DNA from: an uncultured Gemmatimonadaceae bacterium
GTDB lineage: Bacteria > Gemmatimonadota > Gemmatimonadetes > Gemmatimonadales > Gemmatimonadaceae
Direction: 5' to 3'
NCBI GenBank assembly: GCA_963796655.1
Contig: CAWCML010000012.1
Location: 7,401-71,400 of the forward strand
Length of the DNA: 64,000 nt
Shown here: positions 3,543 through 43,879 of the stretch, piece by piece
Numbering within the stretch: the stretch's first letter is position 1
How the letters are laid out: each line of letters begins with the position of its first letter
Program-made: the position numbers and the translations under genes
Notes under the pieces: generated by a model
The model's input: only the letters and a program-made list of their open reading frames with translations
The model's database searches: none
What the model was told of the DNA's origin: nothing

Positions 3543-3545
3543 CAG

Positions 3546-3571
3546 GGGGCGGGCGCCGGAGCGCCCGTCCC
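3546..3571. terminator. GC-rich hairpin between convergent genes (possible bidirectional terminator)
   Basis: GGGGGCGGGCGC-cgga-GCGCCCGTCCC: 6-bp perfect core stem, extendable to about 11 bp with one G-U pair. No clear U-tract. Confidence 0.35.
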
Positions 3572-3579
3572 GGTCATGC

Positions 3580-5644: not shown

Positions 5645-5755
5645 GAATGGATCCTCGGAGGGCGGGTGACTCGGGCCAACGCTACGGAACCATGGACGGT
5701 GAAGCAAGGCGAGGGGCGCAGGGCGAAAAATGGGCACGACGTCCGCAAATCCGCA

Positions 5756-7861: not shown

Positions 7862-7913
7862 GGTCGGTTTCCGACAAGGGGTCATGGTTGCGTGGAGTGT
7901 CATGGTGGCCGCG

Positions 7914-9387
7914 CTACGCGGCCTCTTCCCACGGCCCTTCGGTCACCACCGACAACTTCTTCATCAGGGGAATCAACGCGGCGGCAACGACGGTGCCGAT
8001 CACGGCCACGATGCCGAGCTTGATGAAGAGGTTCGTGTACAGCGGCAGCGAGTCCACGGGACTCGTCACGTTCTGCGGCACGCTGGCGTAGGTGGCGACG
8101 TAGCTTCCGAGGTACTGCGAGATGCCCGTGGCGAGGAACCAGACGCCCATGATGAAGCCGCGGAGCGACGGGCCGACGTAGCGCGCGACCATGGCCAGGC
8201 CGAGTCCGCTGATGAGGAGTTCTCCCAACGACTGGAAGGCGTAGCCGATGATCATGAACCAGAACGAGACTTTGCCGGCCACGGCGAAGTGGCCGCTGAA
8301 GCCGTAGATGAAGAAGCCGAGGGCCAGCACGGCGAAGCCCATGGCGAACTTGGTGGAGATGTGGAAGTCGCCGCCCTCGCCCCGCCCGAGGCTGTTGTAC
8401 AACCAGGCGAGTCCAGGGCTCAGGATGAAGATCCAGATCGGGTTCAGCGCCTGCACCTGCCCGGCGGGGACCAGGTATCCGAACAGGTTGAGATCGACGT
8501 TGCGGAACGAGAAGAGGGTGAGCGACGTCGACATCTGCTGATAGAAGATGAAGAACAGCATGCCGAGGCCCGTGAGGATGAGCACCGAGATGAGTCCCTT
8601 GCGCTCGCGCTCGCGTGCCCTTGCTTCCCATGACACCGAAGATGACGAGCATGGCGAGGAATCCGAGGACGACGGTGCCGCGGGCTACGGTGCGGTTCTG
8701 GATGATGAACGACACGAGGACGATGCCGGCGGCCATCCCGACGAGCACGAGCACCAGGCGCGTGACGTTGAGCGGCTCGAAGTCCGGCTGGGAGCCCACG
8801 TGCCGGAGATAGCGGCTCATCACGAGGTAGTTGATGATGCCGACGACGAGCCCGGCCGCGCACACGGCGAAGGCCGCGTGCCAGCCGATCTTGACCGCGA
8901 TCAGGGGGGTCGCGATCTGCGAGATGGCCGACCCGATGTTCACCGCCATGTAGTACATCGTGAACGCGCTGTCGATCCTGGCGGAATCGCCCTCGTACAG
9001 CTTGGAGATGAGGTTGGCCGGGTTCGCCTTGAACATACCACCGCCCACGGCCACGACGGCCAATGCCGGGAAGAGCAGCTCCGGATGGCCGGGAATCGAG
9101 AGCCCGACGTATCCGAGGGCGAGGACCAGCGCCCCGAGCACCGTCGTGCGGCGGCTGCCCAGGAGCTTGTCGCCGATCCAGCCGCCGATCGCGGGCACCG
9201 TGTAGGCCATCGCGGCGAACGCACCGAAGGTGAGGTTGGCGCGGTCATCGGTGTAGCCGAGCTGCTGCACCATGAACAGCACGACCACGGCCGTCATGCC
9301 GTAGTAGCCGAACCGCTCCCACATCTCGACGAGGAAGAGCGTGGTGAATCCCTTCGTCCGCGAAGGCGCCTGCGCGCTGGTGGTCAT
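7914..9387 (-). pseudogene. POT/PTR2 family proton-dependent oligopeptide transporter; one +1 shift near 8620
   Basis: N-terminus FLVEMWERFGYYGM (PTR2 signature) in ORF 7900..9387. C-terminal half (FYQQMSTSLTLF...GLGLAMVARYVGPSLRGFIMGVWFLA) in ORF 7914..8636. Confidence 0.85.
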
Positions 9388-9438
9388 GTGCGAATTCCTC
9401 GGTACGTGAAGTGTCGGGGGGCCTGAGGATGCCCCCTA

Positions 9439-9540
9439 TCATCCCCTGGGGACCGGCCGACCGCCATCCTCCGTTCGCCCCAACTCCCGCTCGATGCGGC
9501 AGCGGCCGGCGAGCGCTGCCGAGAGGCGCTCGATGGGCAT
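9439..9540 (-). pseudogene. decayed N-terminal stub of a Ser/Thr kinase paralog (33 codons)
   Basis: The ATG lies 2 nt after the stop of the upstream kinase. It translates MPIERLSAALAGRCRIERELGRTEDGGRPVPRG*, which matches the array consensus xxLxxALADRYRIERELGQGG and then degenerates. Confidence 0.5.
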
Positions 9541-9542
9541 CG

Positions 9543-12227
9543 TCACCGTCCCGTTCCCGATCCGAGGTGCGACGCCCATGACGTCATCACGCGCACCTCG
9601 CGCAGCGAGGGCGCGGCAAGATGGCGCTTGAAGACGAACCGGTTGCCACCCATCCCCACCGCGTAGTTCCGTCCCGGAAAATCGGCCACCGTCGTGGTGA
9701 ACAGCTTCTGCGGACTCCCGAAGGGCGAGGCGCTCGCGGCGTCGTAGCTGATGAAATAGAACGTCTGCAGCGATTCGGCGCGCCCGTCGACCGCGCGTCC
9801 GATGTCAACCACCGCCGCGATCAGCCCGGTTCCACCGGCCACCATGGTGGGCATGCCGTAATCCAGGGGCGCAATCACGATGCGCCGGGCGCTCCCGTCG
9901 AGCGCCAGCGCCTGCACGGCACCGCCGACGCTCTCCTGCCCGTGCTCGATCAGCCAGCGGCCGTCAGCCGTCACCCCGAAGATCGCATCCACGGGCGCCG
10001 CCACGGCCTGGCCGGCGGGTCGGCCGCCGCGAAGCACGCGCGCCGAGTCGCGGGACCACGCCAGATACGCGCCGCTGTCCGACAGCACATACACCTGCTG
10101 GAGAAGGTCCGTGCCCGGCGGCAGCGGCGTCGGCGCGGCATTCTGGGTCGGATCGCCGATGAGCGCGGTATCGGCGTGGGTGTACACGACGCGCCGTCCA
10201 TCGGCGGTCCAGGCCGGAATGCCGAGTGCGCGACCGGTGAGCCACGGCGTGACCTGGCCCGTGGTCACGTCGATCACCTCGATGCGGTCGCCGCCGGCCG
10301 TGCTCACGTGCGTGACGAGGCGGCGTCCGTCGGGGCTGAGCGAGAATCCGTCGTAGTCGTCGGGCGGCGCGGGGATGGTGTCGATGCGGCCCGAGCGGTC
10401 CGCGCGCACGAGGATCCCCTCGGCGGCCACGTCACCGGGCGCGTAGGCGAGCACTCCCGACGCGCTGACGGTGAACTGCGCGGCTCCCCGCCCCGTTTCC
10501 ACACGGACGCTGTCGGCGATCGAAACGGCCGGACCAGTCACCCGAAACGACGCAGCGTCGAAGGGCGCGGCGTAGAGGCGCCCGTCGAGCGTTGCATAGA
10601 CGAGATGCCCGTGCCCGTCCGGCGCGCCCGCGGCAGCTCGGAGCGGCTCGCTGCCCCCGCTCGCGGCGGGTTGCATCACGGGCGCGCCCTTCCCGGTTTC
10701 GAGATCGGCCACCCAGAGATATCGACCGTCGTCCACCAGCACGTGCCGCCCGTCCGCCAGCACCTTCGGCACTCCGCACGTCGCCATGCAGGTAACCGTG
10801 CGCACGGAGTCGCCCGACGGCGTGAGGACCGCCAGCTCGTTGGCGAGACGCTGCGCGAGCACGATGCGTCCGTCCGCCATGACCGTGCCGCCCCACGCCT
10901 CGCCGTAGAACTCGCCGGCCGGCTGGCGGCGCACCAGCGTCACCCGGTCGTCGGCCAGCGTCAACCGCATCAGTCCCTGGGTCCCGAAGAAATACACCGC
11001 GTCGCCCGACGGCGAGAAGAACGGCGACTGCGCACCCACGGTGCCGTCGAGCGCACGAAAGCCGAACTGCGACAGCGTGCGCAGATACAGCTGCGACGAC
11101 GCGCCCCGGCGGGCAACCACGACCAGCTGCTTCCCGTCGGGCGACAGGGCCAGGGTTTGCGTTCCCTCCGGCATCCTCAGATCGGGCGCCAGCTGTAGCG
11201 AGTCGGGGAGCACGATGCTCGCGCTCACCTCTGGGCGGGCGTTGCCCGAGGTGCGCCCCACGCGACCGATGAGCCAACCTCCGGCGAGCCCGCACACTGC
11301 AAGCGCGAGACCCGCGCCCGCAAGCGCGAGCCGGTGCCCCGGGGCGATCGGTGACGCCATCCCTCCTGCCCCAGTACGACCGCCCGGGCCAAAACCCGGC
11401 GACGAGAGCGCGGCGGAAAACTCGGCGGCCGTCGCGAACCGGTCGGCGGGCAGCTTGGCCAGCGCGCACAGCACCGCCGCCTCGACGTGCGGCGGCACCG
11501 TCTTGCGCACGAGCGTGGGGCGCTCAGGCTCGGCGCTCATCACCTTGGCCACGATCGCCTGCACGCTGGCGCCGGTGAACGGCGGATCGCCGGTGAGCAT
11601 CTCGTACGTGACGGCTCCGAGCGCATAGATGTCGGCGCGGGCGTCGATCTGCTTCTCGCCCATCGCCTGCTCGGGGCTCATGTACTGCGGTGTGCCCAGC
11701 GAGAGTCCCGTCTGCGTCATCCGCGCGCCGGCCGCCGTCTGCACGGCGAGGGCGATGCCGAAGTCGGCGACCAGCGCGTGCCCGCCCTGCAGCAGGATGT
11801 TCTCGGGCTTGATGTCGCGGTGGACGATCCCCTGCGCGTGGGCAGCGCCCAGGGCGTCGGCCACTTCGCGCGCGATGCGCAGGGCGTCGTCGATGGGGAG
11901 CTGCCGCTCGCGCTCGAGCCGCGTGCGCAGCGTCTCGCCGGCGACGTACGGCATCACGTAGTAGAGCAACCCGCCGGCGTCGCCCGAATCGAGCAGCGGC
12001 AGGATGTGCGGGTGCTGCAGCCGGGCGGTGGTCTTGATCTCGCTGAGAAAGCGCTCGCCGCCCAAGACGGCCGCGAGTTCCGGCTTGAGGACCTTGATCG
12101 CGACGTCGCGATCGTGTTTGAGATCGCGCGCGAGATACACGGTGGCCATCCCGCCCTGCCCCAGCTCGCGCTCCAGGCGGTAGCGGTCGGCGAGGGCGGC
12201 GCTCAGGCGGGAAAGGGCGTCTGCCAT
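9543..12227 (-). CDS. Hanks-type Ser/Thr protein kinase with one TM helix and a C-terminal PD40/TolB-like beta-propeller ectodomain (kinase E)
   Basis: Intact, 894 aa. GQGGMATVYLA...AIKVL (subdomains I-II), [28 protein letters not shown] helix LALAGAGLALAVCGLAGGWLIG. Multiple SPDG/SPSG repeats follow. Confidence 0.9.
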   Translation of the reverse strand: MADALSRLSAALADRYRLERELGQGGMATVYLARDLKHDRDVAIKVLKPELAAVLGGERFLSEIKTTARLQHPHILPLLDSGDAGGLLYYVMPYVAGETLRTRLERERQLPIDDALRIAREVADALGAAHAQGIVHRDIKPENILLQGGHALVADFGIALAVQTAAGARMTQTGLSLGTPQYMSPEQAMGEKQIDARADIYALGAVTYEMLTGDPPFTGASVQAIVAKVMSAEPERPTLVRKTVPPHVEAAVLCALAKLPADRFATAAEFSAALSSPGFGPGGRTGAGGMASPIAPGHRLALAGAGLALAVCGLAGGWLIGRVGRTSGNARPEVSASIVLPDSLQLAPDLRMPEGTQTLALSPDGKQLVVVARRGASSQLYLRTLSQFGFRALDGTVGAQSPFFSPSGDAVYFFGTQGLMRLTLADDRVTLVRRQPAGEFYGEAWGGTVMADGRIVLAQRLANELAVLTPSGDSVRTVTCMATCGVPKVLADGRHVLVDDGRYLWVADLETGKGAPVMQPAASGGSEPLRAAAGAPDGHGHLVYATLDGRLYAAPFDAASFRVTGPAVSIADSVRVETGRGAAQFTVSASGVLAYAPGDVAAEGILVRADRSGRIDTIPAPPDDYDGFSLSPDGRRLVTHVSTAGGDRIEVIDVTTGQVTPWLTGRALGIPAWTADGRRVVYTHADTALIGDPTQNAAPTPLPPGTDLLQQVYVLSDSGAYLAWSRDSARVLRGGRPAGQAVAAPVDAIFGVTADGRWLIEHGQESVGGAVQALALDGSARRIVIAPLDYGMPTMVAGGTGLIAAVVDIGRAVDGRAESLQTFYFISYDAASASPFGSPQKLFTTTVADFPGRNYAVGMGGNRFVFKRHLAAPSLREVRVMTSWASHLGSGTGR

Positions 12228-12365
12228 GGCTCGAAGATGCCCCGGCGGAAGGCGGAGCGCCAGCGCGGTGTCTCGCCATCATCTCGCGTCGGCCGGCCGG
12301 GCGCCACTCGCACGACGCGCCCAGCCGATGCATCTTGGGAGGGAACCCCGCCCGGGCACGAACCA

Positions 12366-13217
12366 ATGTCTCAACCAGCGCGCAAGCCGACCGATGCCGA
12401 CATCGATGCGTACGGCGTCACGCACGTGGGCAAGGTGCGCCGGGAGAACCAGGACCACTTCCTGATCTCGACGCTCGCCAAACAGGTGCGGGTCGACCAG
12501 ACGAGTCTCCCGGACATCGCGGGGCTCAGCAGCGCCGTCGATCGGGTGGCCTCGCTCACCATGGTCGCGGACGGTGTGGGCAGCGGCGCCGGAGAGGAGG
12601 CGTCGCGCTTCGCGGTCCAGGCCATCGCGTCCTACGTGGCGCGGAGCACGCAGGTGTTCTACGCCGCGGACGCGGCGGAGCCCGGAAACTTCGCCCGGCT
12701 TCTCGAAGACGCCGCCATGCGGTGCCACACCGACCTCCTCGAACACGCCGCCAGCGAAGGCAAGTCTGGACGCCTCGCGACGACGCTCACGCTCTGGCTC
12801 GGCCTCTGGCCACAGGCGTACGTGCTGCAGGTGGGGGACAGCCGCTGCTACCTCTATCGCGACGGGCAGTTGACCCAGATTTCGCGCGATCAGACGATGG
12901 CCGAAGATCTGGTCGAGAAGGGGATCCTCACGCGTGACCGGGCCGCGCACAGCCGGTATGCGGATATCCTCTCCAGCGCCATCGGGGGCCCCGAAGCCGC
13001 GCCGGTGGTGACGCGGGTGGTGCGCGACTGGGGCACGATCGTGCTGCTGTGCAGCGACGGGCTCACCAAGCACGTGTCCACCGAACGCATTGCCGAGCGG
13101 CTCGGCGCCCTCAGGAGTTCGAAGGAGACGTGCGAGGCGTTGTTGCAGGACGCCCTCGACGGCGGCGGAACGGACAACATCACCATCGTGATCGGCCGGA
13201 CGGTGCCACCCGGCTAG
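12366..13217 (+). CDS. PP2C-family Ser/Thr protein phosphatase
   Basis: 283 aa. THVGKVRRENQDHF, MVADGVGSGAGEEAS, LLCSDGLTKHV and GGGTDNITIVI are the PPM motifs. Confidence 0.9.
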   Translation: MSQPARKPTDADIDAYGVTHVGKVRRENQDHFLISTLAKQVRVDQTSLPDIAGLSSAVDRVASLTMVADGVGSGAGEEASRFAVQAIASYVARSTQVFYAADAAEPGNFARLLEDAAMRCHTDLLEHAASEGKSGRLATTLTLWLGLWPQAYVLQVGDSRCYLYRDGQLTQISRDQTMAEDLVEKGILTRDRAAHSRYADILSSAIGGPEAAPVVTRVVRDWGTIVLLCSDGLTKHVSTERIAERLGALRSSKETCEALLQDALDGGGTDNITIVIGRTVPPG

Positions 13218-13242
13218 CTCATTGGTGCATCTTGGCTGGCGA

Positions 13243-13314
13243 TCACCCCTGCCCCAGTCCGCGCTCGATGCGGTAGCGGTCGGCGAGGGCTTCCCGGAGG
13301 CGATCAACGCTCAT
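13243..13314 (-). pseudogene. decayed N-terminal stub of a Ser/Thr kinase paralog (23 codons)
   Basis: MSVDRLREALADRYRIERGLGQG*. It starts 9 nt downstream of the TPR-kinase stop. The DNA ctcgatgcggtagcggtcggcgag is identical to the same segment in the full-length paralogs. Confidence 0.5.
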
Positions 13315-13323
13315 GTGCACCAC

Positions 13324-15508
13324 TCACTTGATGAAGTTCAAGCGCCTCATCAGCGCAGTGAACCGTGGCTCGGATCCCAACGGACCGAATGTCGGGGCCA
13401 CCTTCAACCAGACGAGCTGCTGTGAGTTGGCCGCGTAGGCCTGTTCGAGATAGTCGAGCGCACGCGCGTGATCTCCGAGGCCGAGGTGTAGCAGCGCCAG
13501 GTTGAACGGCGCCACCTCGCCACCGGGTGAACTCTGCTTCAACTCCGCGACCGTCGCCAGCGCGCCGGCACGATCGCCGGACTTCGCCTGCGCATACGCC
13601 AGATCGGCGGTCACGAACGCCGGGGCGCCCAGCGCCCGCGACTCCTTCAACTTCGTGATCGCCTCGCCGTAGTGCCCGGCGTACAGCGCTATGATCCCTT
13701 CCTCCTGGACGGGGAAGTAGAAGGTCGGGTCGAGCTCCGCCGCCTTCCGGTCCAACTCCAGGGGTTCGCTCGTCCGCCCCCGGTAGAGGTACGCACATGC
13801 TGCGTCGACCAGGATCGACGGCGAGAGCGGGTCGAGCGCCATGGCGCGCCGGCCCTCGGCGACTGCCTCATCGAATCGCCCGACGATCGAGAGGATCAAG
13901 CCGAGTTGGTCGTGCGCGAACGCGTAGTTGGGATTCAGGGCTATGGCCCGGCGGAGTTCCTGCTCGCTTCCGTCCCAATCATAATCGAACCACCCCTTGA
14001 ACACCCCCAGTGACGTGTGCGCCTCTGCCGACATACTGTCGAGTGCGACGGCGCGTTCGGCGGCTTCCCTGGCCAGCGGTTTGGCATCGGCCACCGACAT
14101 GAACCCCTCGTTGAACGCCGCCCAGGCATGGGCATCCGACAGCCCCGAGTACGCCGGGGCGAATGTCGGGCTCAGCGTGACCGCGGTATCGAACTGCGCG
14201 ATCGCCTTCTGGAGGTTCTCATCGCTGGGGCGATTGAAGAAATACCGGCCCTTGAGATAGGCGTCGTGTGCCGCCGGGTCGACGCTCGGTGCGGCGGCAA
14301 GGCGCGACTGATCGCGCTGTGTGAGTTGGACGTTGATCGCGCTGGCGATGGCCGACGCCAACTCGGCCTGGAGCGCCAGCACGTCGCTCGACTTCCGCTC
14401 GAAGGTCTGGGCCCACAGGTGCTTGTCGGCCCGGGCATCGATGAGTTGTGCGTTGATCCGTACCGCGTCGCCGACCCGGGTCACCGAACCCTCGACGATG
14501 GCATCGACGTTGAGCGTCTTGGCGATCTCCGGCGTGGGCGGGCGATGGCTTCCCTTGAACTGCATCGCCGAGCCGCGCGAGGTGACCCGCAGCTGACTGA
14601 TCGTCGCCAGGTCGCTCGTCAGCTCGTCCGTCATCCCCTCGGTGAAGTAGTCCTGGGTGGAGTCGGAGGAGTAGTTGTCGAGCGGCAACACGGCGATAGA
14701 GCCGATGGTGCCGGCGGCGGGCGAACTGGACGACCGGCCAACGCGGGTGAAGATCGCGACAATCGCCAGTACTGCCACGGTCCCACCTACCGCGATCCAT
14801 CTCCAACGGCGGCGACCGGCGGACTCCGTGGGCACGCCCCCGCCTCTCGCGGCGGCACCATCAGTGCGTGCCGTGAGCACGTCGGCGAATTGTGCCACGG
14901 GATTGAACCGGTCGGCGGGTTGCTTGGCGAGCGCGCGCTGGAGCGCCGCCGCCACCGCCGCCGGCACCGCGGGCCGGAGATTCGTGACCGGCTGCGCCTC
15001 GACGATCATGTGTTGGTGCACCACACTCTCGACCGTGGGACCCGTGAACGGCGGCTGGCCGCCGAGCATCTCGTACAGCACGCAGGCCAGGCTGTACAGG
15101 TCGCTGCGACCATCGAGACTCTTCTCGCCCGCCGCCTGCTCGGGACTCATATACTGGGGCGTCCCGATCGCCATCCCGGTCTGCGTAATTGACTCCGCCC
15201 CGGTCACGCAGCGACTCGCCTTCGACGTACGGCATCACGTAGTAGAGGACACCACCGGCCTCGCCCGAATCGTAGAGCGGCAGAATGTGCGGATGGCGCA
15301 GGTTGGCGGTGGTGGTGATTTCGCGGAGGAACCGCTCGGCGCCGAGCACGGCGGTGAGCTCCTGCTTCAGCACCTTGATCGCGACCTTGCGATTGTGCTT
15401 GAGGTCCTCGGCCAGATACACCGTGGCCATGCCGCCCTGCCCGAGCTCGCGCTCGATGCGGTAGCGGTCCGAGAGGGCCGAAGCGAGTTGGGCGGGGGCG
15501 GTCGTCAT
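13324..15508 (-). pseudogene. Ser/Thr kinase paralog with TolB-N/CsgG-like module and TPR ectodomain (kinase D); internal deletion removes the catalytic loop and DFG, and shifts the frame
   Basis: N-terminus MTTAPAQLASALSDRYRIERELGQGGMATVYLAEDLKH...YYVMPYVEGESLRDR (ORF 14861..16159) joins directly to TGAESITQTGMAIGTPQYMSPEQ (ORF 13324..15207). No HRDxKxxN or DFG is present in any frame. Downstream: a TM helix, then IAVLPLDNYS...VRINAQLIDA, then TPR repeats. Confidence 0.8.
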
Positions 15509-18162
15509 CGGTTGGCCGCGTCCACGGCCCGCTCCATCTGCGTCACCCAGTGGGGAATCACGCGGAAATAGCTTGCGCGCAGGTCCTCGGGGCCCTGGAG
15601 GTAGATGATTCCGCCGCGCCAGTCGGGCCGGTTGGACCACCCGAACGTGTCCGCGAAGCGCGGGTCGCTGCCCCACACGACGGCCGATCCCGTCGGCTCT
15701 CCGGTGGCCGGGTTGATGCGCACCACGTGCCAGGTGAATCCAGACCGGTAGAGTATCTCCGAGTTGGAGAGCCAGATGGGCTCCACGGCACTGGTGGCGA
15801 TCTGACGCTCCGACGATCCCGGCGGATTGTCGGTCAGGACCACGCGGCTGCCCGCCGACTGACTGAACACGATGTGGCGCCCGTCGGGAGAGATCATGGT
15901 GTAGACCCGGTCGACAGCGATGCTGTCGAACCGGACAGCGGGTGCGGCGGGATCGAAGCGGACGATCCGGCGCGGCGTACCGATTCCACCCAACGCCAGA
16001 TGGGGAGCGGACCAGTCCAGCAACACGGGAGTCGCGGCTGCGTCTTGCGACGCATAGATGGTGTCTGGCTGCGCAGCGGACGAGGGCGACCCCCGCAGGA
16101 TCGCGGCGCCCGTTGGGTTCTGCACCTGCACAATCAGCGTCGAGCCGTCGGCGCTCCACAGCGGCTGGTCGACGTACGCCGCACGCAGCCAGGTGAACGA
16201 CTGCCCGCTGCCCAGGCTGAATACTCGGAGCTCATAGTAGCCGGGTCCCTCGACGACGGCGGCGAGCCGGCGTCCGTCGCGGCTGAGGTCCCAGCGCTGG
16301 TACGCGCCGGCCGGGACATCCAAGGTCCGCGTGGACCCGTCGGCGGAACGGTCCACAAGCCTGCCGATGTGCGTGTTACCGCCGGGGGCGAAGAGCAGCA
16401 TGCCCGTCCGGCCCAGGTCGAAGTCCGCCGCCCTGACGCCAGCCGTCCGGATGCCGGCCAGCAGCGACGCCGATCGCCCAACCGTGTGGGTGGACCCATC
16501 ATACGGCACCGCCTGCAGCTCGCCCTGCGACGATTCGTAGACCAGGTATCGGCCGTCGACCAGGCGGAACGCGAAGCCTGCCAGCGGACTCGCTGGCTGC
16601 CCGCCGGTGGTCCGCGTCTTCACGGGCCAGGTCTTGCCGGTGGCCGGGTCGACGGCGGTCAGGACTCCGCGAGCGTCGCAGAGCGCCTGGCGATCGCGGG
16701 CAATCCAGCTGCCGTCGAAGCACCACGGGACGGCGTGGCTGGCAATCATTCCCGCATCCGTGTCGAACTGGCGAAACCGGAGCCCGCCCTGATCGACGAC
16801 CATCAGGGTCGTCGGGGTGATCCAGTTGAGCGCGTACGGGTCGCCGTCGAGATCCGCGATGGTGCGGGATTGCCCGCCCGTGACCGGCGCGATCAGCAGG
16901 CTGGCATTGGCGACGAACGCCAGCTTGGACCCGTCGGGCGAGACGCGCGGGGTGCTGGCGCCCTCGGTGCCCTGGATGGGCGCCGCAGTGGTGTCGCGTA
17001 CGCTGCGCCGCCACAGCACGGTGGAGTTCCCCTGCCTGACCACGTAGACCACAAAGCGCTCGTCAGGCGAGAGCGCGAGGCCACCTAGCGGTGACCCATA
17101 CGGCGTACTTGGCGTCAGGCCGGTGAAGTCCATCGCCGCGCTGTCGGCAAGCGCGACGTCGTAAACCTCCGGTCCATTCCCGCCGCTGCGGTGGTCGAGC
17201 GCCCAGCCCATAAGGACCAGTGAAAATACGGCGACTGCGGCGAGCACGAGTGTGCGAGGATCCCTCAGCCAGACACGCGCGCCGGGCGGAGTCGGCACCG
17301 CGAGTTGCCCACGCGTCGTGTTGAAGTGAGGATCGGCGAGCGCGTTGGCAAAGTTCTCCGCCGTCACGAACCGGTCGGCAGGGAGTTTTTCCAGAGCTTT
17401 TGCCACCGCCGCCGCCACATTCGGCGGCACCGACTTTCGGAGCGCGGTGACCGGCGCCGCCGCTTCGGTCACGATCTTCATGATGATCTGCTGCGCCGAC
17501 GCGCCGGTGTGCGGCGGGTCGCCGGTGAGCATCTCGTACAGCACAGTGGCCAGCGAGTAGATATCGCTGCGCGCCGTGATCTCCTTCTCGGCGGTGGCCT
17601 GTTCGGGGCTCATGTAGTGCGGCGTGCCGAGACTGAGCCCCGTCTCGGTCATCCGCCCGCCCGCCGCCGCCGAGACCGCCAGTGCAATCCCGAAGTCGGC
17701 GACCATCGGCCGGCCGTCGTGCAGCAGGATGTTCTCGGGCTTGATGTCGCGGTGGATCACGCCGTGCCGGTGCGCGTAGTCCAGCGCGTCGGCCACCTCG
17801 CGTGGTGATCTCACCGCCTCGTCGATGCCGAGCTGCGTCTCGCGATCGAGCTTGGCGCGCAGCGTCTCGCCTTGCACGTACGGCATCACGTAGTACAGGA
17901 AGCCGTCGGCGGTGCCCGAGTCGAACAGCGGCAGGATGTTGGGATGCTGCAGCGCTGCCGTGGTCGCGATCTCCTGCACGAATCGGTCGGCGCCAAGCAC
18001 GGCCGCCAGCTCGGGCTTCAGCACCTTGATCGCCACCTGACGATGGTGCTTCAGGTCCCCGGCGAGATAGACGGTCGCCATGCCGCCCTGCCCGAGCTCG
18101 CGCTCGATGCGGTAGCGGTCGGCGAGGGCCGAGGCCAGACGGGGGTTCACGGCGTCCGTCAT
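15505..18162 (-). CDS. Hanks-type Ser/Thr kinase with TM helix and beta-propeller ectodomain (kinase C)
   Basis: 885 aa from [55 protein letters not shown] helix LVLAAVAVFSLVLMGWAL. SPDG repeats. ATGA overlaps at both ends (15505-15508 and 18159-18162). Confidence 0.9.
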   Translation of the reverse strand: MTDAVNPRLASALADRYRIERELGQGGMATVYLAGDLKHHRQVAIKVLKPELAAVLGADRFVQEIATTAALQHPNILPLFDSGTADGFLYYVMPYVQGETLRAKLDRETQLGIDEAVRSPREVADALDYAHRHGVIHRDIKPENILLHDGRPMVADFGIALAVSAAAGGRMTETGLSLGTPHYMSPEQATAEKEITARSDIYSLATVLYEMLTGDPPHTGASAQQIIMKIVTEAAAPVTALRKSVPPNVAAAVAKALEKLPADRFVTAENFANALADPHFNTTRGQLAVPTPPGARVWLRDPRTLVLAAVAVFSLVLMGWALDHRSGGNGPEVYDVALADSAAMDFTGLTPSTPYGSPLGGLALSPDERFVVYVVRQGNSTVLWRRSVRDTTAAPIQGTEGASTPRVSPDGSKLAFVANASLLIAPVTGGQSRTIADLDGDPYALNWITPTTLMVVDQGGLRFRQFDTDAGMIASHAVPWCFDGSWIARDRQALCDARGVLTAVDPATGKTWPVKTRTTGGQPASPLAGFAFRLVDGRYLVYESSQGELQAVPYDGSTHTVGRSASLLAGIRTAGVRAADFDLGRTGMLLFAPGGNTHIGRLVDRSADGSTRTLDVPAGAYQRWDLSRDGRRLAAVVEGPGYYELRVFSLGSGQSFTWLRAAYVDQPLWSADGSTLIVQVQNPTGAAILRGSPSSAAQPDTIYASQDAAATPVLLDWSAPHLALGGIGTPRRIVRFDPAAPAVRFDSIAVDRVYTMISPDGRHIVFSQSAGSRVVLTDNPPGSSERQIATSAVEPIWLSNSEILYRSGFTWHVVRINPATGEPTGSAVVWGSDPRFADTFGWSNRPDWRGGIIYLQGPEDLRASYFRVIPHWVTQMERAVDAANR

Positions 18163-19492
18163 GCGATCTCCGAGTCCACGCCGACGGGCGCCGGCTGCAA
18201 CCGGCCCAACCGCGCGTTCAGGGCATAGTATAGAACGGCCAGCGCCATGACGCCGCCAACCGCCACCGCCGCCTGCCAGCCCGAGTGCGTGAGCAACCAG
18301 ACCACGGTGGCCGAGCCAAGCACCGCCGCCGCCGGGCCGCCGGGCGCCCGGAAGGTACCCCGCACCGCCGGCCGCGTGTAGCGCATGCGCAATGCCGCGA
18401 GGCACACACCGAGGTAGATCAGCAGCAGCGCCATTCCCGCCAGGACGGCGAGCGCCGCGAATCCGCCGCTCACCGCCAACGTGAATCCGATCACGCCGTA
18501 CACGATGATCGCCACCCAGGGCGTGTGGAAGCGCGGATGGATGGAGGCGAGTGACCGCGGCAGCAGCCCCCGTTCGGCGATGGGAATGAACGCGCGCGGC
18601 GAGCAGACGTAGTCCGCCGCGATCGCCCCGAATCCGGCGATCGTCGCGCCGGCAAGCACCATGGACCGCCCGACGCCACCCATCACCAGGCCGGCGGTGG
18701 CCGCGAGGGGGGCCTCGGTCTGGGTGGCCAGCGTGGCGCCGAGCACGCCCTGCGATACCACCTGCAGCGCCAGATACAGCACCACCACCGCCACCACGGC
18801 GCCGAACACCCCGCGCGGCACGGTGCGCGCCGGATCGCGCACCTCGCCACTGGGCGTGAGCGCCGTCTCGATGCCGCCGAACGCGAAGAAGAGCGTGAGC
18901 GCCGCGGTGCCGAAGTCGCCGATCGGCGGGCATTCCGTGCCAGGCGAGATTGGCCCCGCGGATGGAGAACGCGCCGACCACGGCGAGCAGCACCAGCGGC
19001 ACCAGCTTGGCCACGGTCGTGGCCACCGACAGGCCGAGGCCCTGGCGAACCCGCGCACGTTGACCGCTACCAGTCCGCCGAACATCAGCAACAGCAGGGC
19101 GACTCGCGTGGCCGGGCCGCCGAGCGCCGGCACGAGCCCTACCAGCGAATCGATCACCACCACCGCGATCGCCGCATCGGCCGCCGGCTCGTACAGGATG
19201 ATGAGGACCACCCAGGCGAGGAATCCGGCCAGCGGGCCGAATGCGTCCTCGATGTACGCCACGGCGCCGCCCGAGCGCTTCGTCCGACTCCCCACTTCGG
19301 CGAAGCATGCCAGAACACATATGATGAGCGCCGCGCACAAGCAGGTAGGCGAGGATCGCCGCCGGTCCGAGGATGGCGGCCACAGCCGCCGGCAGCGCGA
19401 AGATGCCCGGCGCCCACCGTGAGGTTCACCGCGTTGGCGCCCAGCGCCCAGGGGCCGATGGCGCGGTCGAGGTGGGCGCCGGACGTCGTCAC
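18159..19492 (-). pseudogene. APC-superfamily amino acid permease; about 4 +1 shifts (about 18940, 19050, 19337, 19405)
   Basis: GTG start overlaps the upstream kinase stop (GTGA, 19489-19492). LDRAIGPWALGANAVNLTVGAG|IFALPAAVAAILGPAAILAYLLV|CAALIICVLACFAEVGSR...FFAFGGIETAL is spread over three frames. 12-TM-like hydrophobicity. Confidence 0.8.
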
Positions 19493-22178
19493 TTCCCCTT
19501 CTCGGTCACCCGCTCGACTTCCACGCGCCAGTTGAAGATCACGTTCAGGTCGGCCGCCGCATCGCCGCCGGTCGGCACCATCAAGAACCGTTTGCCGTTC
19601 GGGGTCACGCTGTAGTCGCAGTGGAAGAGATCCTGGACCAGACCAGGCAGCGTGAACAGCAGCTTGGGCGTACCATGCGTGAAGCGCGCCCCCGTGGTAA
19701 CGGGCGTCGCGAACATCTCTCCGCGCTGGCCACGGAAGAAGAGTTCGGTGCCGTCGCGGCTCCACACCGGCTCCACGCCGCCGGCGACCGAGATCGGAAC
19801 GCGCGCGGAGTCGACGTTCGGGAACGGACGTACGTATACCTCGGCGATGCCCGATTCCTCGGAGACGTAGGCAAGCCAACGTCCGTCGCGCGAGAGCTTC
19901 ATGGCGTAGTGGTCGAAGCGCGACTGGATGAGCACCCGCGCCACGCTGTCCGTCCCGGGTTCCGCCACCAGGAGGTGCCGGCTGCCCACCCCCGAGCCCT
20001 CGGTGCGGAAGAGCGTGAATCTCCCTGCGGGGTCAAAGGCGACTTCATCCAACTTGGGCCGGCTCGGCAACACCGGCTGCTCGCCGTCGGTTCCGTCTGC
20101 GCGTCGAACGAACGCCGTTCGCACTCCGTTCACCGTGGCCATGTAGGCCACGCGGCGCCCGTCCGGCGACCAGTCGGGACGGTCCGCGCCGCCCGGATCC
20201 GACGTGAGCCGGGTGAACGCGCCGGTCGGCAACTGCTTCACCCAGACTTGCGGCGACGTCTGATCGAGGCGCACCACCACGAACTGCGTGCCGTCCGGTG
20301 ACAGCACCGGATCCTGGAACGCGCCATGCAGGCTCGTATCGACGGCGGTCATCGCGCCGGTCCGGTCCACCCAGACGAGTCCGCCGCCCTCGCCTGCCGC
20401 GCGCTCATACACCATGGCCCCGGTGGACGAGACCGCGAATTGCACGGTGCCGTTGGTGCTCTCCGTCTGCACGTTCTGCGTGACCGGGAGGGGCGTGCTC
20501 GTGAGGCGAGCCGACGCGACATCGAAGCGCGCGCCGAGGATGCGGCCGTCCGCCGTTCCGATTGCCAGATATCCGGGCGCCACATAGCGAGCGATCGTCC
20601 CGGGTGTCAGGTCGCGCGCATGCCCTGTCGCCACGTCGACGACGGCGATGTGCGAGGCACCGGCCGAACCGCGCCATACCATCACCAGAACCTTGCGGCT
20701 TCCGGGCAGCACCTCGGGAAAGTCGAATTCGGACCCGCCGGTCACCGAGTCCGGTCGCGCAATCGTCGTCACCGGGCCCCCGGCCGCCGCGACCGACGCG
20801 AGAGCCGAGTTGTACGAGAAGTAGATCCGGCCATCGTCTCCCCACGCACCACCGCCGTAGAACGGCAGAGAATCGTGAACGATCGTCCGGACCGTCCCGC
20901 CGCCAAAGTTCACGGCCTTGAGCTGCGCCTGCGATCCGGTGCCGGTATAGAACCCGATCGACTCTCCGTCCGGGGAGAAGAAGGGATCGCCGGCACCCTC
21001 GGTGTCGGCGAGTGGATGCGCGGCGGCGTCCCCGAGTTCGCGCACCCAGAGTTGCGCGACTCCATTCTTCTCTCCCACGAAGGCAATGCGCCGTCCCGAG
21101 CGCGACATCGCGAGGCGCACCGTCGCCAGCGGTGGAACGGTGACGCTGTCCGCGAGCCCCAGCGTGGCGTGCACGACGTCCGACGGCCCGACGCTGCCCG
21201 GATCGCCGCCTCGCTTGCCGATCAGCCAGCCCGCGGCGAGCGCGACGACCACCGCAGCGGCCGCGACGGCCATGACGACGCGCGACGGGCCCGCCGGTAC
21301 GCCGGCGAACGAACCCGCCGTGATCGCCTGCGTGGCGAACCCCGGATTGTTGAGCGCATCCGCGAACGCCTTCGCCGTCTCGAACCGGTCGGCCGGGCAG
21401 CTTCTCCACCGCCTTGGCCACCGCCGCCGCCACGTTCGGCGGCACACTCTTGCGCAGCTTCGTGACCGGCGCCGCCTCCTCGGTCACGATCTTCATGATG
21501 ATCTGCTGCGCCGAGTTCCCCATGTGCGGCGGCTCGCCGGTCAGCATCTCGTACAGCACGCTCGCCCAGCGAGTAGATGTCGCTGCGGCCGGTGATGTCC
21601 TTGTCGGCCGTCGCCTGCTCGGGGCTCATGTAGTGCGGCGTGCCGAGCGACATCCCGGTCTCGGTCATCCGCCCGCCGGCCGCCGCGCTCAACCGCCAGC
21701 GCGATGCCGAAGTCGGCCACCATCGGCCGGCCGTCGTGCAGCAGGATGTTCTCGGGCTTGATGTCGCGGTGGATCACGCCGTGCCGGTGCGCGTAGTCCA
21801 GCGCGTCCGCCACCTCGCGTCGTGATGCGCACCGCCTCGTCGATGCCGAGCTGCGTCTCGCGGTTCAACTTGTCGCGCAGCGTCTCGCCCTCGATGTAGG
21901 GCATCACGTAGTACAGGAAGCCGTCGGCGGTGCCCGAGTCGAACAGCGGCAGGATGTGCGGATGACTCAGCGCCGCGGTGGTCTTGATCTCGCTCACGAA
22001 CCGCTCGGCGCCGATGACGGCGGCCAGCTCGGGCTGCAGCACCTTGAGCGCGACCTTGCGGTCGTGCTTCAGATCCTCGGCCAGATACACGGTGGCCATG
22101 CCGCCCTGCCCCAGCTCGCGCTCGATGCGGTAGCGGTCGGCGAGCGCCGGCGGCGAGACGGTCGGGAGCCGCGGTCAT
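19489..22178 (-). pseudogene. Hanks-type Ser/Thr kinase with PD40 propeller ectodomain (kinase B); about 5 +1 shifts, all inside the kinase domain (about 21400, 21565, 21695, 21820, 22145)
   Basis: Fragments: MTAAPDRLAA|ALADRYRIERELGQGGMATVYLAEDLKH...|[40 protein letters not shown]|[25 protein letters not shown]|[12 protein letters not shown]...|PADRFETAKAF. The TM helix and propeller then follow in intact ORF 19489..21447. Confidence 0.85.
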
Positions 22179-24902
22179 TGGCCGGCCATCCGGCGCTTCA
22201 GCTCGTCGAGGAAGTTGAACACCACCACCACGTGCACCGCGTCGCCCGTGGTTCCCTGGATCATGAGAAACCGCTGCCCGTTGGCCGCCACAGCCCACTC
22301 CTGTGAGAACGCGTTCAGGAAATACCCCCCGGCCGCGAACAACACCCGCGGCTGCCCCATCTGGAACGCCGGCCCCGGGATCACCGGCACCGACACCATG
22401 TTGTTTGCGGCGTCGATATAGAACAGTTCCTTGCCGGTCGGATTCCACGCCGGATTCGTTCCACCCGTCGTGGACACCTGGTACGGCGTGCCTGCGGCGT
22501 CGGGAAAGGAGCGTACGTAGATCTCGCGCCGGCCCGACACGTCGGAGCTGTACGCCATCCACCGGCCATCGGGCGATATCTCCGGCAGCAGTTCTTCGGC
22601 CGGCGTGGCCACCAACGCGCGCGGCACGGTATCGACACCGGGGCGGATGGCCAGGATGTCGCCGTTGCCGGGTTCCTGGTTATCGGTGCGGAACACCAGC
22701 CACTTGCCGTCGGGCGACCAGGTAGCGCCGCCGATGGTACGCGGGTCGTGCAGATCCGGCTGCGTGATGCCCGCGTGTCCCGTGAGGTTGAGCAGGAACA
22801 ACCGCAGGCTCGTCGCGCCGAGCTTCGCCCGATCGGAGAGATACGAGACCTGATTCGTTCCGGGCCGCCAGGCGGCGCGCCAGTTGGCGGTTCCGTCGAA
22901 GGTGACGCGCACCTTGGGGCTGCCGTCCAGCGCCTTCATCCAGAGGCTGAACTTGCCATCGGGACCGGCCATGGCGACGACGATCCGCTTGCCGTCCGGG
23001 GAAAGCGCCGGGCTGTCGACCCCGTCGTCCACCAGGTCGCTGGCCACCGGCGTCGCGTCGCCGTTCCGGTTCACCCACACCAACCGGTACGACTGGACGA
23101 CGCCCTTCACGTAGGCAAGCGTGCCCCCCGGCGAAAGGGAGAGATCCCCAACGGCCTGCGCCCCGGTGGCCAGCGTGTCCGCCAGTTCGCGGGCCGGCCC
23201 GGTGGTGGTCAGCGACTTCTCGTCGAACGGGACCGCCCAGAGCACCCCGTTCGCTTTGGAAAAGATCACATCGCCGGTTGGGGCGTAGATGGCCCGGGTG
23301 CCCTGCAGGACCAGCGACACCTTTCCCGTGCGGAAATCCACGGCGCCGATCGCCACTGCGTCCTGGCTGGTGGGATTCGATGCTGGTACGACCGAAACCA
23401 GCGCGCCCCGCGCGCCCGGAAGCACGGCCGGCCACATATAACGGAGATCGCCGCGCTGCGCGTTCAGCGGAGCCACCACCTGAGGAGTGCCGCCGCGGGG
23501 CGAGACGCGGAGCAGCCCCTTCAAGCCGCTCACATACAGCATGCCGTCCGATCCCCAGTCCACGCCGCCGCCCAGGTCGGACACCGAGGTGAGTCCCGAG
23601 TCCGCTACCGTCGCCGGGAACCCACCGGTCAACGGCAAAACCTGTAGCGTGTGCGGTGGGGCCAGGTAGGCCACCGAATCACCACCGGGCGAGAACACCG
23701 AGCAGCAGGCCCCGCCCAGCGTTTGCGAATATCGAGTGGCCCCCAGCCGATCCCACCGGCGCATCCAGAGCTGCGGCTGCCCGTTGGCGCCGATGCCGGA
23801 GTAGACCAACCCGCTGCCGTCGGGGCGGAGCGCGAGGAACGGCGCGGGAACGCTCCCGTGCTGCGGCTGCTCGTTGGCCGGAAATTCCAGCATCACGCGC
23901 GTCGTGCCCCGTTCGGGCACAGGCCCGCGGCGCAGCAGCGCGGTAGCTAACGCGCCCACGGCGAGCGCTCCCAGCACCAACGCCACCACGGCGGGTACGC
24001 CGAGCGCCCGCTGCGACTTCATGAACGGCGCGCCGGCGGCCGGTGGCGTTCCCCACGCTCGCCCCCGACGTATCCGCCAGCGCCGCCGCGAACTGCGCCG
24101 CCGTGGCGAACCGGTCGGCCGGCAGCTTCTCCAGCGCCCGCAGCACCGCCGCCTCGACGTGCGGCGGCACCGTGTGCCGCTGCGCGACGATCGACGCCGG
24201 CTCCTCCGTCATCACCTTGGCCACGATGGCCTGCGCCGTGGTCCCCGTGAACGGCGGCTCGCCCACCAGCATCTCGTACAGCATCGCGCCGAGCGCGTAG
24301 ACGTCGCTCCGCGGCGTGATCTCCCGCTCGCCCATCGCCTGCTCGGGACTCATGTACGTGGGCGTGCCGAGCGACATGCCCGTCTCGGTCATCCGCGTGC
24401 CGCCGTCGCTGCGGCTCACCGCCAGCGCGATGCCGAAGTCGGCCACCAGCGCATGCCCGCCGTGCAGCAGGATGTTCTCCGGCTTGATGTCGCGGTGGAT
24501 CACGCCGTGCCCGTGCGCGTACTCCAGCGCGTCGGCCACCTCGGTCGCGATGCGCACCGCCTCGTCGACCGGGAGCTGCTTCTCGCGCGTCAGCCGGTCG
24601 CGCAGCGACTCGCCCTCCACGTACGGCATCACGTAGTAGACGAAGCCGTCCGCCTCGCCCGAGTCGAACAGCGGCAGGATGTGCGGGTGCTGCAGGTTGG
24701 CGGTGGTCTTGATCTCGGTCAGGAACCGCTCGGCGCCGATCACGGCGGCCAGCTCCGGCCGGAGCACCTTGAGCGCGACCTTGCGGTCGTGCTTGACGTC
24801 GTGGGCCAGATACACGGTGGCCATCCCGCCCTGCCCGAGCTCGCGCTCGATGCGGTAGCGGTCGGCTAATGCGCGGCCAAGGCCTGTTGCGGCGTCGCTC
24901 AA
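22175..24902 (-). pseudogene. Hanks-type Ser/Thr kinase with PD40 propeller ectodomain (kinase A); one +1 shift near 24040; only a TTG start is available
   Basis: Kinase domain in ORF 23679..24902 ([26 protein letters not shown]). TM helix and propeller in ORF 22175..24022 (ALGVPAVVALVLGALAVGALA, SPDG repeats). Its stop overlaps the kinase B start (ATGA, 22175-22178). Confidence 0.85.
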
Positions 24903-24944
24903 GGCGTGCTCGTCATGGAGTCGGCGGGGTCACGGAATACGGAA

Positions 24945-24969
24945 ATCGGACGCAGGGGGCGCGTCCGAT
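24945..24969 (-). terminator. perfect 9-bp hairpin downstream of vapC and upstream of kinase A
   Basis: ATCGGACGC-agggggc-GCGTCCGAT. On the minus strand it is followed by TTTCCGTATTCC (weak U-tract). Confidence 0.25.
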
Positions 24970-25092
24970 CAGGAGGCGAGATTTCGGGCTGTCTTGAGCC
25001 GACCGGTCAGGCGGGGAATGGAGGCGTACCGACTGGACTCAACATGGGCCACTTAGCCCCCCGGGGCAAGGAGCACTCTATAGTTGCGAATT

Positions 25093-25476
25093 TCAACCTG
25101 GGGCGAACCCAAGCGCGCGAGCAACCCGGCCCTGCGCCTCGTCCAGCGTCACGAACGAAATTGTCGCGGCGTCTCCGGCCACATACAGCGCCGTGGCCAG
25201 GTGCCAGCAGTCGGCGCCGCGCACGTACCCCGCGTCGAGCACGCGGCCGATCTCCGGCGAGAGGGGTCGGTCGGGAACGACCCACGAGATCGACCGCAGC
25301 GCGTCGACCGGTCCGTCACGCCCCTCTCGGAGGCAGGCCGCCCGCAGTTCGGCCTCCAACAGATTGGCCGCAACCAGGCGATCGAAGCCGCCGAGCCGCC
25401 GCACCAGTGCCGCCGCGCCCCGTTCACCGAATTCGAGCGCCACGAGGCACGACGTATCGACGTAGGCGACTCTCAT
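25093..25476 (-). CDS. vapC: type II toxin, PIN-domain ribonuclease VapC
   Basis: 127 aa. MRVAYVDTSCLVAL (first acidic residue), LLEAEL, GADCWHLATAL and FVTLD fit PIN spacing. ATGA overlap with the upstream antitoxin. Confidence 0.85.
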   Translation of the reverse strand: MRVAYVDTSCLVALEFGERGAAALVRRLGGFDRLVAANLLEAELRAACLREGRDGPVDALRSISWVVPDRPLSPEIGRVLDAGYVRGADCWHLATALYVAGDAATISFVTLDEAQGRVARALGFAPG

Positions 25477-25748
25477 CCGTCGCGATCGGCGAGGAAGCGC
25501 TTGAGCGCGCCACGCTTCGGCGTCCCCGGGCTGAGGACTGCCCGCGGTTCCGCGGGTTCCACGAGGATGCCCCGTTCGGCGAGCGCCGTCAGTCGGGCGC
25601 TCAGATCTTCCGACTCGGCGGCGAGGGGCCGGATCTCGACGGCCGGCTCGCCGTGCACCGTCACCACCACCGTGTGCCCCTCGCGCACGCGTCGCACGAT
25701 GGCCGACAGGTGCGCCTTGGCTTCGTACAGCGAGTAGGTGTCACGCAT
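25473..25748 (-). CDS. type II antitoxin, Phd/YefM-type
   Basis: 91 aa. YSLYEAKAHLSAIVRRVREGHTVVVTVHGEPAVEIRPL is a typical Phd/YefM N-terminal fold sequence. Confidence 0.8.
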   Translation of the reverse strand: MRDTYSLYEAKAHLSAIVRRVREGHTVVVTVHGEPAVEIRPLAAESEDLSARLTALAERGILVEPAEPRAVLSPGTPKRGALKRFLADRDG

Positions 25749-25755
25749 ACCGCAA

Positions 25756-25790
25756 ACTAGTCGATTATGGTCAGACTAGTCAAACCATAA
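25756..25790. promoter_or_regulatory. candidate toxin-antitoxin operator/promoter: two ACTAGTC repeats interleaved with the inverted repeat TTATGGT/ACCATAA
   Basis: ACTAGTC at 25756-25762 and 25775-25781. TTATGGT at 25765-25771 pairs with ACCATAA at 25784-25790. This is an AT-rich island 8-42 nt upstream of the antitoxin ATG. Confidence 0.4.
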
Positions 25791-25863
25791 CCTTCCCGGC
25801 CGGGGCTCGGCCACGCCGTGGGACGGCGGCCCCATCGGGCCGCCGCCCCACCCGCTGACCCTT

Positions 25864-28800: not shown

Positions 28801-28962
28801 GTACTCGCGGATCTTGGCGGTGTACGCCGAGTCGATGGGCTGGTGCGGGTCGCGGCCGGGCTTGAGGCCGTGCAGCTCGCCCTGGGCCCGCGCGGCGGGA
28901 GCGGTGACCGAGAACGCGGCAAGCGCGGCCGCGGCGGAGAGGACGTGGACAAGGCGCTTCAT
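25864..28962 (-). pseudogene. large secreted M14 family metallocarboxypeptidase (about 1030 aa); about 5 +1 shifts (about 26075, 26180, 26330, 27155, 28705)
   Basis: Signal peptide MKRLVHVLSAAAALAAFSVTAPAARAQ (ORF 28612..28962). Core in ORF 26789..29044 with HSPESGAP (HxxE zinc ligands) and HDNNRD. C-terminal domain in ORF 25864..27150 plus two short frames. Confidence 0.85.
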
Positions 28963-29149
28963 GACGAGCCTCGAGATCGGGGGACCGGGACGGGAAGACC
29001 CGGTGAAATTGGCCGTGGTGCATGGGCCGCGCCAGAGCGGGCATCAGGATCGGAGGGTCTGGACCTGATGATCCGGATGAGACGGATGGAGTGATTTAGG
29101 GTGCGGAAATCGGGTGCCGGTGCGCCTGGCCGGAGTTCCATGTTGCGGG

Positions 29150-43792: not shown

Positions 43793-43879
43793 AGGCGGTA
43801 GCCTTTCATCGTGATTGGGGGTTTCCATGCGCGAACCACTACAATTAGTCTAACCCATCCGCGTGCGAGTCTCGTTTTC

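Follow-up and report, generated by a model that had tools for sequence, protein, structure and literature searches.

Can a transporter gene that sits between receptor kinase genes, and is joined to them by overlapping stop and start codons, be part of one signalling system with them? This question is raised by a stretch of 64,000 nucleotides (the window in the following) from the genome of an uncultured soil Gemmatimonadaceae bacterium (contig CAWCML010000012.1, G+C content ~69%), in which an APC-superfamily amino-acid permease is embedded in a tandem array of Hanks-type Ser/Thr kinases, called A to E here. We found that this kinase-transporter array is real and conserved, and its gene context suggests that the kinases and the transporter are also functionally coupled. 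The reading we favour, to which we give about an even chance, is that of a conserved, Gemmatimonadales-specific array of receptor Hanks kinases with an embedded permease, whose sensors would tune amino-acid or peptide uptake or catabolism.

Conservation of the kinase-permease arrangement

The initial annotation had described five minus-strand kinase genes with an almost invariant N-terminus. Indeed, the motif ALADRYR(I/L)ERELGQGGMATVYLA is present on this strand at five open reading frame (ORF) starts, at approximately 24836, 22111, 18093, 15442 and 12161. The four 4-nt stop/start overlaps described for the locus are present as well: the bases read ATGA at 22175-22178, GTGA at 19489-19492, ATGA at 18159-18162 and ATGA at 15505-15508, which chains A, B, the permease, C and D.

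A lack of kinase-permease-kinase synteny in every relative had been set beforehand as a result that would refute the proposal; the synteny count below shows the opposite. For the synteny count we pooled 80 permease loci from a metagenome scan with genome-derived loci. Among loci with a permease identity of 55% or more (Gemmatimonadales), about 22 of 30 keep the arrangement, with same-strand kinases abutting the permease. For permeases of at most 51% identity, none of 56 metagenome loci had a kinase. In the relatives the upstream kinase commonly stops with GTGA or ATGA, and the downstream kinase starts about 12 nt or less from the permease stop.

Individual relatives illustrate the range of layouts. 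Locus L001 (permease 79% identical) has the order kinase-kinase-permease with a 4-nt overlap. In L002 (permease 68%) the order is kinase, TPR kinase, toxin-antitoxin module, kinase, kinase, permease, TolB_N/TPR kinase, POT transporter, kinase, and nearly all junctions overlap. At approximately 60% permease identity, kinase-permease overlaps were still found in two of three relatives (L032 and L034). The recurrence of tight junctions at this distance shows that the arrangement is not an accident of the present genome. Genes for peptide handling recur as well: L002 and L006 carry POT orthologues of 88-92% identity inside their kinase arrays, and POT or peptidase genes lie within the arrays of L002, L006 and L032.

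In the window the array and its immediate partners comprise the following genes:

22175-24902, minus strand: kinase A, a Hanks kinase with one transmembrane helix and a PD40/TolB-like propeller ectodomain; TTG start; ~908 aa once one base near 24040 is taken out
19489-22178, minus strand: kinase B, 894 aa once five inserted bases are removed; Pkinase and PD40
18159-19492, minus strand: APC-superfamily amino-acid permease, 443 aa after four indel corrections; GTGA overlap with B, ATGA overlap with C
15505-18162, minus strand: kinase C, intact ORF of 885 aa; Pkinase and PD40
15200-15508, minus strand: N-terminal fragment of kinase D, 103 codons that start with the G-loop region and reach subdomain V, after which the frame is lost
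13324-15207, minus strand: remainder of kinase D, with a C-lobe remnant, a transmembrane helix and a TolB_N-like plus TPR ectodomain with a predicted CadC-like fold
12366-13217, plus strand: PP2C-type Ser/Thr phosphatase, 283 aa; PP2C_2 match
9543-12227, minus strand: kinase E, intact, 894 aa; Pkinase, transmembrane helix and PD40 ectodomain
7914-9387, minus strand: POT/PTR2 di/tripeptide transporter, 490 aa without the extra base at 8614

Profile matches bear out the APC permease, the PP2C phosphatase and the flanking POT transporter and peptidases that had been named for this region. Full-length homologues of the permease are annotated with PF13520 and PF00324, and its NCBIfam subfamily matches (TIGR00909, 173 bits) all lie under the equivalog cut-offs. 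The phosphatase scores 51 bits with PP2C_2 against a cut-off of 24, and 156 bits with Stp1/IreP, below the cut-off of 230. Its gene converges on D and diverges from E, and both it and E stand outside the overlapping chain. The proposal of one polycistronic unit that includes E and PP2C therefore has to be narrowed, since both are separate and a single unit can hold only for A-B-permease-C-D.

Frameshifts in the deposited sequence

Taking the five kinase genes as whole, as had been done at first, means silently reading through frameshifts. As deposited the sequence contains 11 frame disruptions, which affect A, B, the permease and D; according to the ORF table, C and E alone read open from start to stop. 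Kinase A contains one frame change near 24040, located by three-frame reading and tblastn with kinase C. The other indels were placed by DNA alignment to relatives, the closest of which were Gemmatimonadaceae metagenome-assembled genomes (MAGs). Kinase B has five extra bases within 0.8 kb of its kinase domain (22149, 21819, 21690, 21564 and 21398); in the permease three bases are surplus (19409, 19339 and 18924) and one is lacking (19047). Compared with intact relatives, every frameshift in A, B and the permease comes down to one inserted or lost base. Correcting those in B restores an 894-aa kinase with all Hanks motifs intact, and the corrected permease has 443 aa, compared with 443 and 453 aa for homologues that are 90-92% identical. 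Gene calls from this contig are unreliable, as seen for a deposited 'permease' of 367 aa: this database protein (P0005) corresponds exactly to the frameshifted ORF of the window, with approximately 40 out-of-frame residues included.

For A, B, the permease and the POT gene, the frameshifts are most probably consensus errors of a noisy assembly and not gene decay specific to the locus, because the indels are absent from intact relatives and similar indels occur in unrelated genes throughout the window. Isolated single-base indels were found in the POT gene (8614), in the M14-like gene (seven sites) and in the M3 peptidase gene (five sites), and a PA/M28 peptidase gene and a PPDK (pyruvate phosphate dikinase) fragment are split as well. 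Sites across the window include 1111, 1828, 1967, 2103, 2466, 8614, 26076-28705, 49069-51055 and 43085-43828, and most are insertions. Over ~14 kb that could be compared with relatives the rate amounts to ~1-2 indels per kb. Contig naming and the Mb-scale contigs of related MAGs suggest a long-read assembly.

We consider it quite improbable that the disruptions reflect real pseudogenisation, in which A, B, the permease and D would be decaying in this organism and C and E alone would be functional. The 11 disruptions as deposited and the missing catalytic core of D (see below) would fit such a process, as would the bunching of indels in B and in the N-terminus of the permease. In particular, five indels fall within 0.8 kb of B and none within the 5.3 kb of C and E together, which is not what uniform noise predicts. 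However, the indels are mostly +1 insertions, and the invariant residues are undamaged by substitution; outside the indels we saw no decay of conserved residues. Peptidase and transporter genes with no relation to the array are hit by comparable indels all along the window, and relatives at 90-94% identity are intact. Furthermore L006 and L005, two MAGs of the same naming series, carry different frameshifts in other kinase genes. Programmed frameshifting was rejected, as the indels follow no fixed position, affect unrelated genes too and are absent from relatives.

In kinase C, comparison with L005 revealed one missing and one extra base 9 nt apart (17802-17811), such that the ORF is kept and approximately three residues are altered (AVRSPREV versus an AVRITSEV-type consensus). 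Due to this compensated pair, the kinases that appear intact may also carry hidden errors.

Kinase domains and the case of kinase D

The kinase domains of the array are PknB-like with a TxT activation loop. With a cut-off of 31.7 bits for Pkinase (PF00069), A scored 175, B 169 (frame-corrected), C 160 and E 157 bits. These four also contain the full motif set, i.e. the G-loop, the VAIK lysine, the alpha-C glutamate, the HRD loop, DFG and SPE, for B again after correction.

Kinase D behaves differently from the other four. Its C-terminal part reached 38.9 bits and matched profile positions 155-253 only. Here an N-terminal piece of 103 codons is joined out of frame to an ORF that resumes in the activation segment, and ~60 codons (~200 nt) including the HRD loop and DFG are gone. 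Intact orthologues of the D type have 760-800 aa with a complete kinase domain. The deletion differs from the typical indel error type; D may be a genuinely dead paralogue or the product of a mis-assembly between repeated kinase domains. Since D lacks HRD and DFG, the five Hanks kinases originally counted reduce to at most four that are catalytically competent.

Between the paralogues the kinase domains are 69-86% identical and the ectodomains only 26-33%, in agreement with the diversified ectodomains proposed before.

Membrane topology and sensor domains

By hydropathy scanning, which is no substitute for a dedicated topology predictor, we located a single hydrophobic helix per kinase, as the initial annotation had it. 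In A, B, C and E it spans approximately residues 300-323, and in D it lies in the C-terminal part. The 560-585 residues C-terminal to this helix form the sensor region. With an ATP-dependent domain at the N-terminus and a single helix, the C-terminal region should be periplasmic. The C-type ectodomain contains a near-invariant Cys157/Cys171 pair, consistent with a periplasmic disulfide. The extracytoplasmic position that had been suggested for the propellers thus fits both the single helix and the cysteine pair, and we infer it from these sequence features.

Profile matches also agree with the division into four PD40 propeller kinases and one kinase with a TolB_N-like module and TPR repeats: A, B, C and E contain Pkinase and PD40, and the remainder of D contains TolB_N and TPR. 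The AlphaFold model of the C ectodomain (predicted local distance difference test score, pLDDT, 91.6) is all-beta. Its best structure matches in the PDB are tandem double propellers, e.g. LRP6 E3E4 and EML- or UTP-type proteins. When the same ectodomain was searched against PDB sequences, the sole match was a short one to actinohivin that we regard as spurious. For D the ectodomain model (pLDDT 91.9) consists of an alpha/beta subdomain followed by helical repeats, and among the PDB matches listed the best by template-modelling score (TM-score) is the periplasmic domain of CadC. For 3LY7 and 3LY8 the TM-score normalised to CadC is 0.66 over 307 aligned columns (E ~1e-8); the matches to 3LY7, 3LY8, 3LY9 and 3LYA have target-normalised TM-scores of 0.66, root-mean-square deviations of ~5 Å and E values of 1e-8 to 3e-7. 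A weak NCBIfam match of D to CadC agrees with the structure match.

The resemblance to TolB opens another explanation of what the kinases sense. TolB binds Pal and colicin peptides. The TolB-like propellers could monitor the status of the cell envelope or of periplasmic proteins instead of nutrients, with the transporter neighbours being coincidental. TolB is the best PDB sequence match of the A propeller (C-terminal part, E 1.5e-11), and D carries TolB_N. We nevertheless judge envelope surveillance to be improbable, as the recurring neighbours are peptidases and amino-acid/peptide transporters and not Tol-Pal or cell-wall genes.

The propellers of the kinases had been proposed for comparison with those of the S9 peptidases encoded nearby. 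This comparison gave a likeness at the level of the PD40 repeat motif only (E ~0.01), such that a recent borrowing of the kinase propellers from the adjoining S9 peptidases was rejected.

The ectodomain family is large. With the C ectodomain as query, representatives of 8,679 clusters at 50% identity matched at E <= 1e-3, and among the matches listed most full-length proteins have ~880 aa with the match in the C-terminal two-thirds. A PD40/Tricorn-like ectodomain is also fused to a Trans_reg_C winged helix in proteins of ~731 aa (P0203, P0204, P0206, P0213 and others). From their domain composition these winged helix-turn-helix (wHTH) fusions are predicted to be one-component membrane regulators, the sensor module being common to kinase and DNA-binding outputs, in line with a modular sensor.

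Proposed mechanism

For a nutrient-sensing array, each kinase would combine a cytoplasmic PknB-like domain, one transmembrane helix and a periplasmic sensor, namely a ~560-aa PD40/TolB-like domain in A, B, C and E and a CadC-like TolB_N plus TPR domain in D. The diversified ectodomains would bind distinct periplasmic ligands, plausibly peptides or protein fragments. The signal would then pass via the nearly identical kinase domains, such that amino-acid/peptide uptake or catabolism is tuned. Co-transcription with the permease could keep sensor and transporter levels matched. The permease itself may be a target of the kinases or a co-sensor as in CadC-LysP.

The co-sensor version can be worded more specifically, though we hold it to be unlikely. 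By analogy to CadC-LysP the permease, and perhaps the POT transporter, would act as trigger transporter or co-sensor for single-pass Hanks kinases, including the one with the CadC fold, and the flux would be read out by Ser/Thr phosphorylation. Such a system would place CadC-LysP-like logic on eukaryotic-like kinases and multiply it into arrays with diversified propeller sensors.

Fluidity of the arrays

The composition of the arrays varies between related loci. L005 has extra kinases relative to the window. L006 (P0002) carries a natural 5.4-kb deletion that removes kinases A and B: its positions 9877-10020 correspond to 24978-24842 and 19472-19455 of the window, such that the 5' region and the first 12 codons of A are fused in frame to the permease at approximately codon 8. 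The fusion point lies in a short shared homology of the GACCGC type. By this fusion the permease keeps the upstream signals of the array.

Ectodomains and kinase domains appear to have different histories. Positional orthology of the ectodomains is limited to the closest relatives, with 82-88% identity for A and 74% for B. The kinase domain of B (21400-22150) is 90-93% identical to those of non-orthologous kinases (L032 at 1816 and 11323; L005 at 4514-5332), whose ectodomains are ~30% identical. For the L032 kinases alone the values are 90-91% for the kinase domain and 32-34% for the ectodomain, while the permease is ~60% identical. This discord implies that the sensors turn over rapidly and that the kinase domain is either very strongly constrained or subject to recombination. 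Judged from the alignments, the tandem paralogues may have exchanged sequence by gene conversion or domain shuffling.

These observations bear on a passenger model, which we consider possible but doubtful. Here, the permease and the POT gene would sit in an expansion-prone kinase array and be co-transcribed for compactness, with the kinases neither sensing the substrates nor regulating the transporters. The fluidity of the array would then be expected: the number of kinases and the ectodomain type around the permease vary, deletion variants exist, and the disagreement between kinase-domain and ectodomain histories points to frequent recombination. Other arrays hold toxin-antitoxin pairs or no transporter. 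Yet the association is confined to one permease clade, within which it extends down to ~58% permease identity with conserved overlapping junctions, and peptide/amino-acid genes recur in independent arrays.

For the nutrient-sensing array that we favour, a number of observations have to be counted on the other side, in addition to the bunched indels and the motif-level likeness to the S9 propellers given above. L033 (~60%) has a permease orthologue without kinases, and the same lineage contains permease-free arrays in which six to eight kinases stand together, in many cases accompanied by VapBC pairs. Given such permease-free arrays and kinase-free permeases, the link between kinases and permease could be structural and not one of signalling. 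The ectodomain type beside the permease differs between genomes and is conserved only among the closest, which weakens the idea of a dedicated kinase-permease pair; a fixed pair was rejected, as the ectodomains have no clade-wide positional orthology. A D-type kinase directly abuts the permease in only L002 and L049 among the related loci checked, and the D of the window, as read, is predicted to be catalytically dead. The PP2C phosphatase had been included in the sensory unit. However, no homologue was found by tblastn in any of 114 related loci, so it was rejected as a conserved partner of the kinases. A sigma-70 promoter scan of 7800-25900 returned no promoters, and an intrinsic-terminator scan of the same region returned two internal terminator-like sites, fewer than in shuffled sequence; both scans are uninformative for the operon structure.

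Relation to known systems

The combination of Pkinase and PD40 is already among the common prokaryotic kinase architectures (PMC2877116). The individual kinases are thus members of a known, uncharacterised kind, and the systems compared below are analogues and not homologues of the whole arrangement. The earlier remark that no characterised system is known with a permease coupled between receptor kinases agrees with our search of an open-access literature library, which yielded no account of a permease lying within such a kinase array or of a kinase-permease operon, nor of this architecture in Gemmatimonadota, nor of a CadC-like sensor on a Hanks kinase.

Four systems come closest. PknD of M. 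tuberculosis, the propeller of which is of the NHL type, shares with the array an N-terminal Hanks kinase, one transmembrane helix and an extracytoplasmic beta-propeller sensor. It differs by its single six-bladed propeller (PMC2877116), compared with sensors of ~560 aa of the PD40/TolB-like type that are predicted to form two propellers, and it is located outside any paralogue array without overlap with a permease gene. PknD was reported to phosphorylate the transporter MmpL7 (PMC2877116). The receptor-type Ser/Thr kinase PknF of the same species is functionally paired with the ABC transporter Rv1747 (PMC2877116). In that case a single kinase without a propeller sensor is paired with a transporter of the ABC type that carries FHA domains, and an APC permease is absent.

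In Actinobacteria the Ser/Thr kinase of the PknG-GlnH-GlnX system reports amino-acid availability, and its operon is conserved with membrane and periplasmic components (PMC8546545). As in the array, a Ser/Thr kinase is encoded beside membrane components in a conserved arrangement. In contrast, PknG is soluble with a TPR domain and senses via the solute-binding lipoprotein GlnH and the membrane protein GlnX instead of an ectodomain of its own, and the system contains neither an APC permease nor a kinase array.

CadC of E. coli is a single-pass receptor with a periplasmic sensor, for which the APC-family permease LysP serves as co-sensor (PMC6978683). The likeness lies in the ectodomain model of kinase D, which superposes on the periplasmic domain of CadC, and in the APC permease within the same gene chain. 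The output of CadC is a DNA-binding wHTH domain of the ToxR/OmpR type, whereas here it would be a Hanks kinase, of which the D copy lacks the catalytic core.

To our knowledge the ligand or physiological input is established for very few bacterial receptor Ser/Thr kinases. The locus provides a large uncharacterised family (thousands of clusters at 50% identity) with a conserved and testable context of amino-acid/peptide transporters and peptidases, and with a concrete analogy, i.e. a predicted CadC-like sensor domain beside an APC permease. If the coupling is functional, nutrient transport would be tied to Hanks-kinase signalling in an abundant soil phylum, and the arrays would constitute a natural panel of sensors with one common output domain. 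What makes the locus valuable is its conserved context together with a co-sensor hypothesis that can be tested, although the poor quality of the contig tempers this value.

Neighbouring genes

In 5' to 3' direction of the minus strand the gene order is M14-like carboxypeptidase, VapB, VapC, hairpin, A, B, permease, C and D. After D follow PP2C (opposite strand), E, POT, two S9 peptidases, a nitroreductase (opposite strand) and an M3 peptidase. The features flanking the array are:

25864-29044, minus strand: M14-like carboxypeptidase gene
25473-25748, minus strand: VapB (Phd-type antitoxin), with VapC (PIN toxin) at 25093-25476, directly upstream of kinase A
24945-24969, minus strand: GC-rich 10-bp hairpin, then a U-rich tail UUUCCGUAUU to 24933, ~45 nt upstream of the TTG start of kinase A
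3311-7903, minus strand: two S9-family peptidase genes, 5756-7903 intact and the second (3311-5737 region) frameshifted, with a PD40/DPPIV_N propeller

The sequence around the hairpin aligns with L006 (87% identity), and the hairpin could either terminate the upstream genes or have a regulatory role. A search of the whole window, hairpin included, gave no Rfam match at the gathering threshold.

VapB(Phd)/VapC(PIN) pairs are located immediately upstream of or inside several arrays: in the window (25093-25748, minus strand), in L001 (941-1590), in L002 (4108-4755) and in L116 (9299-10008 and 14722-15422). The same pairing of a toxin-antitoxin module followed by a kinase occurs in L001, L002 and L116, the last of which shows an 8-nt overlap between the PIN gene and the start of the following kinase.

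Judging from the predicted gene products, the neighbourhood is rich in functions for peptide/amino-acid breakdown and import. Between 29 and 64 kb the window encodes peptidases (M28 with a PA domain, M24) and an amidohydrolase, two MacB/FtsX-type permeases with an ABC ATPase, a GH35 beta-galactosidase, an MscS-type channel, and fragments of phosphoenolpyruvate synthase or PPDK together with their regulatory kinase.

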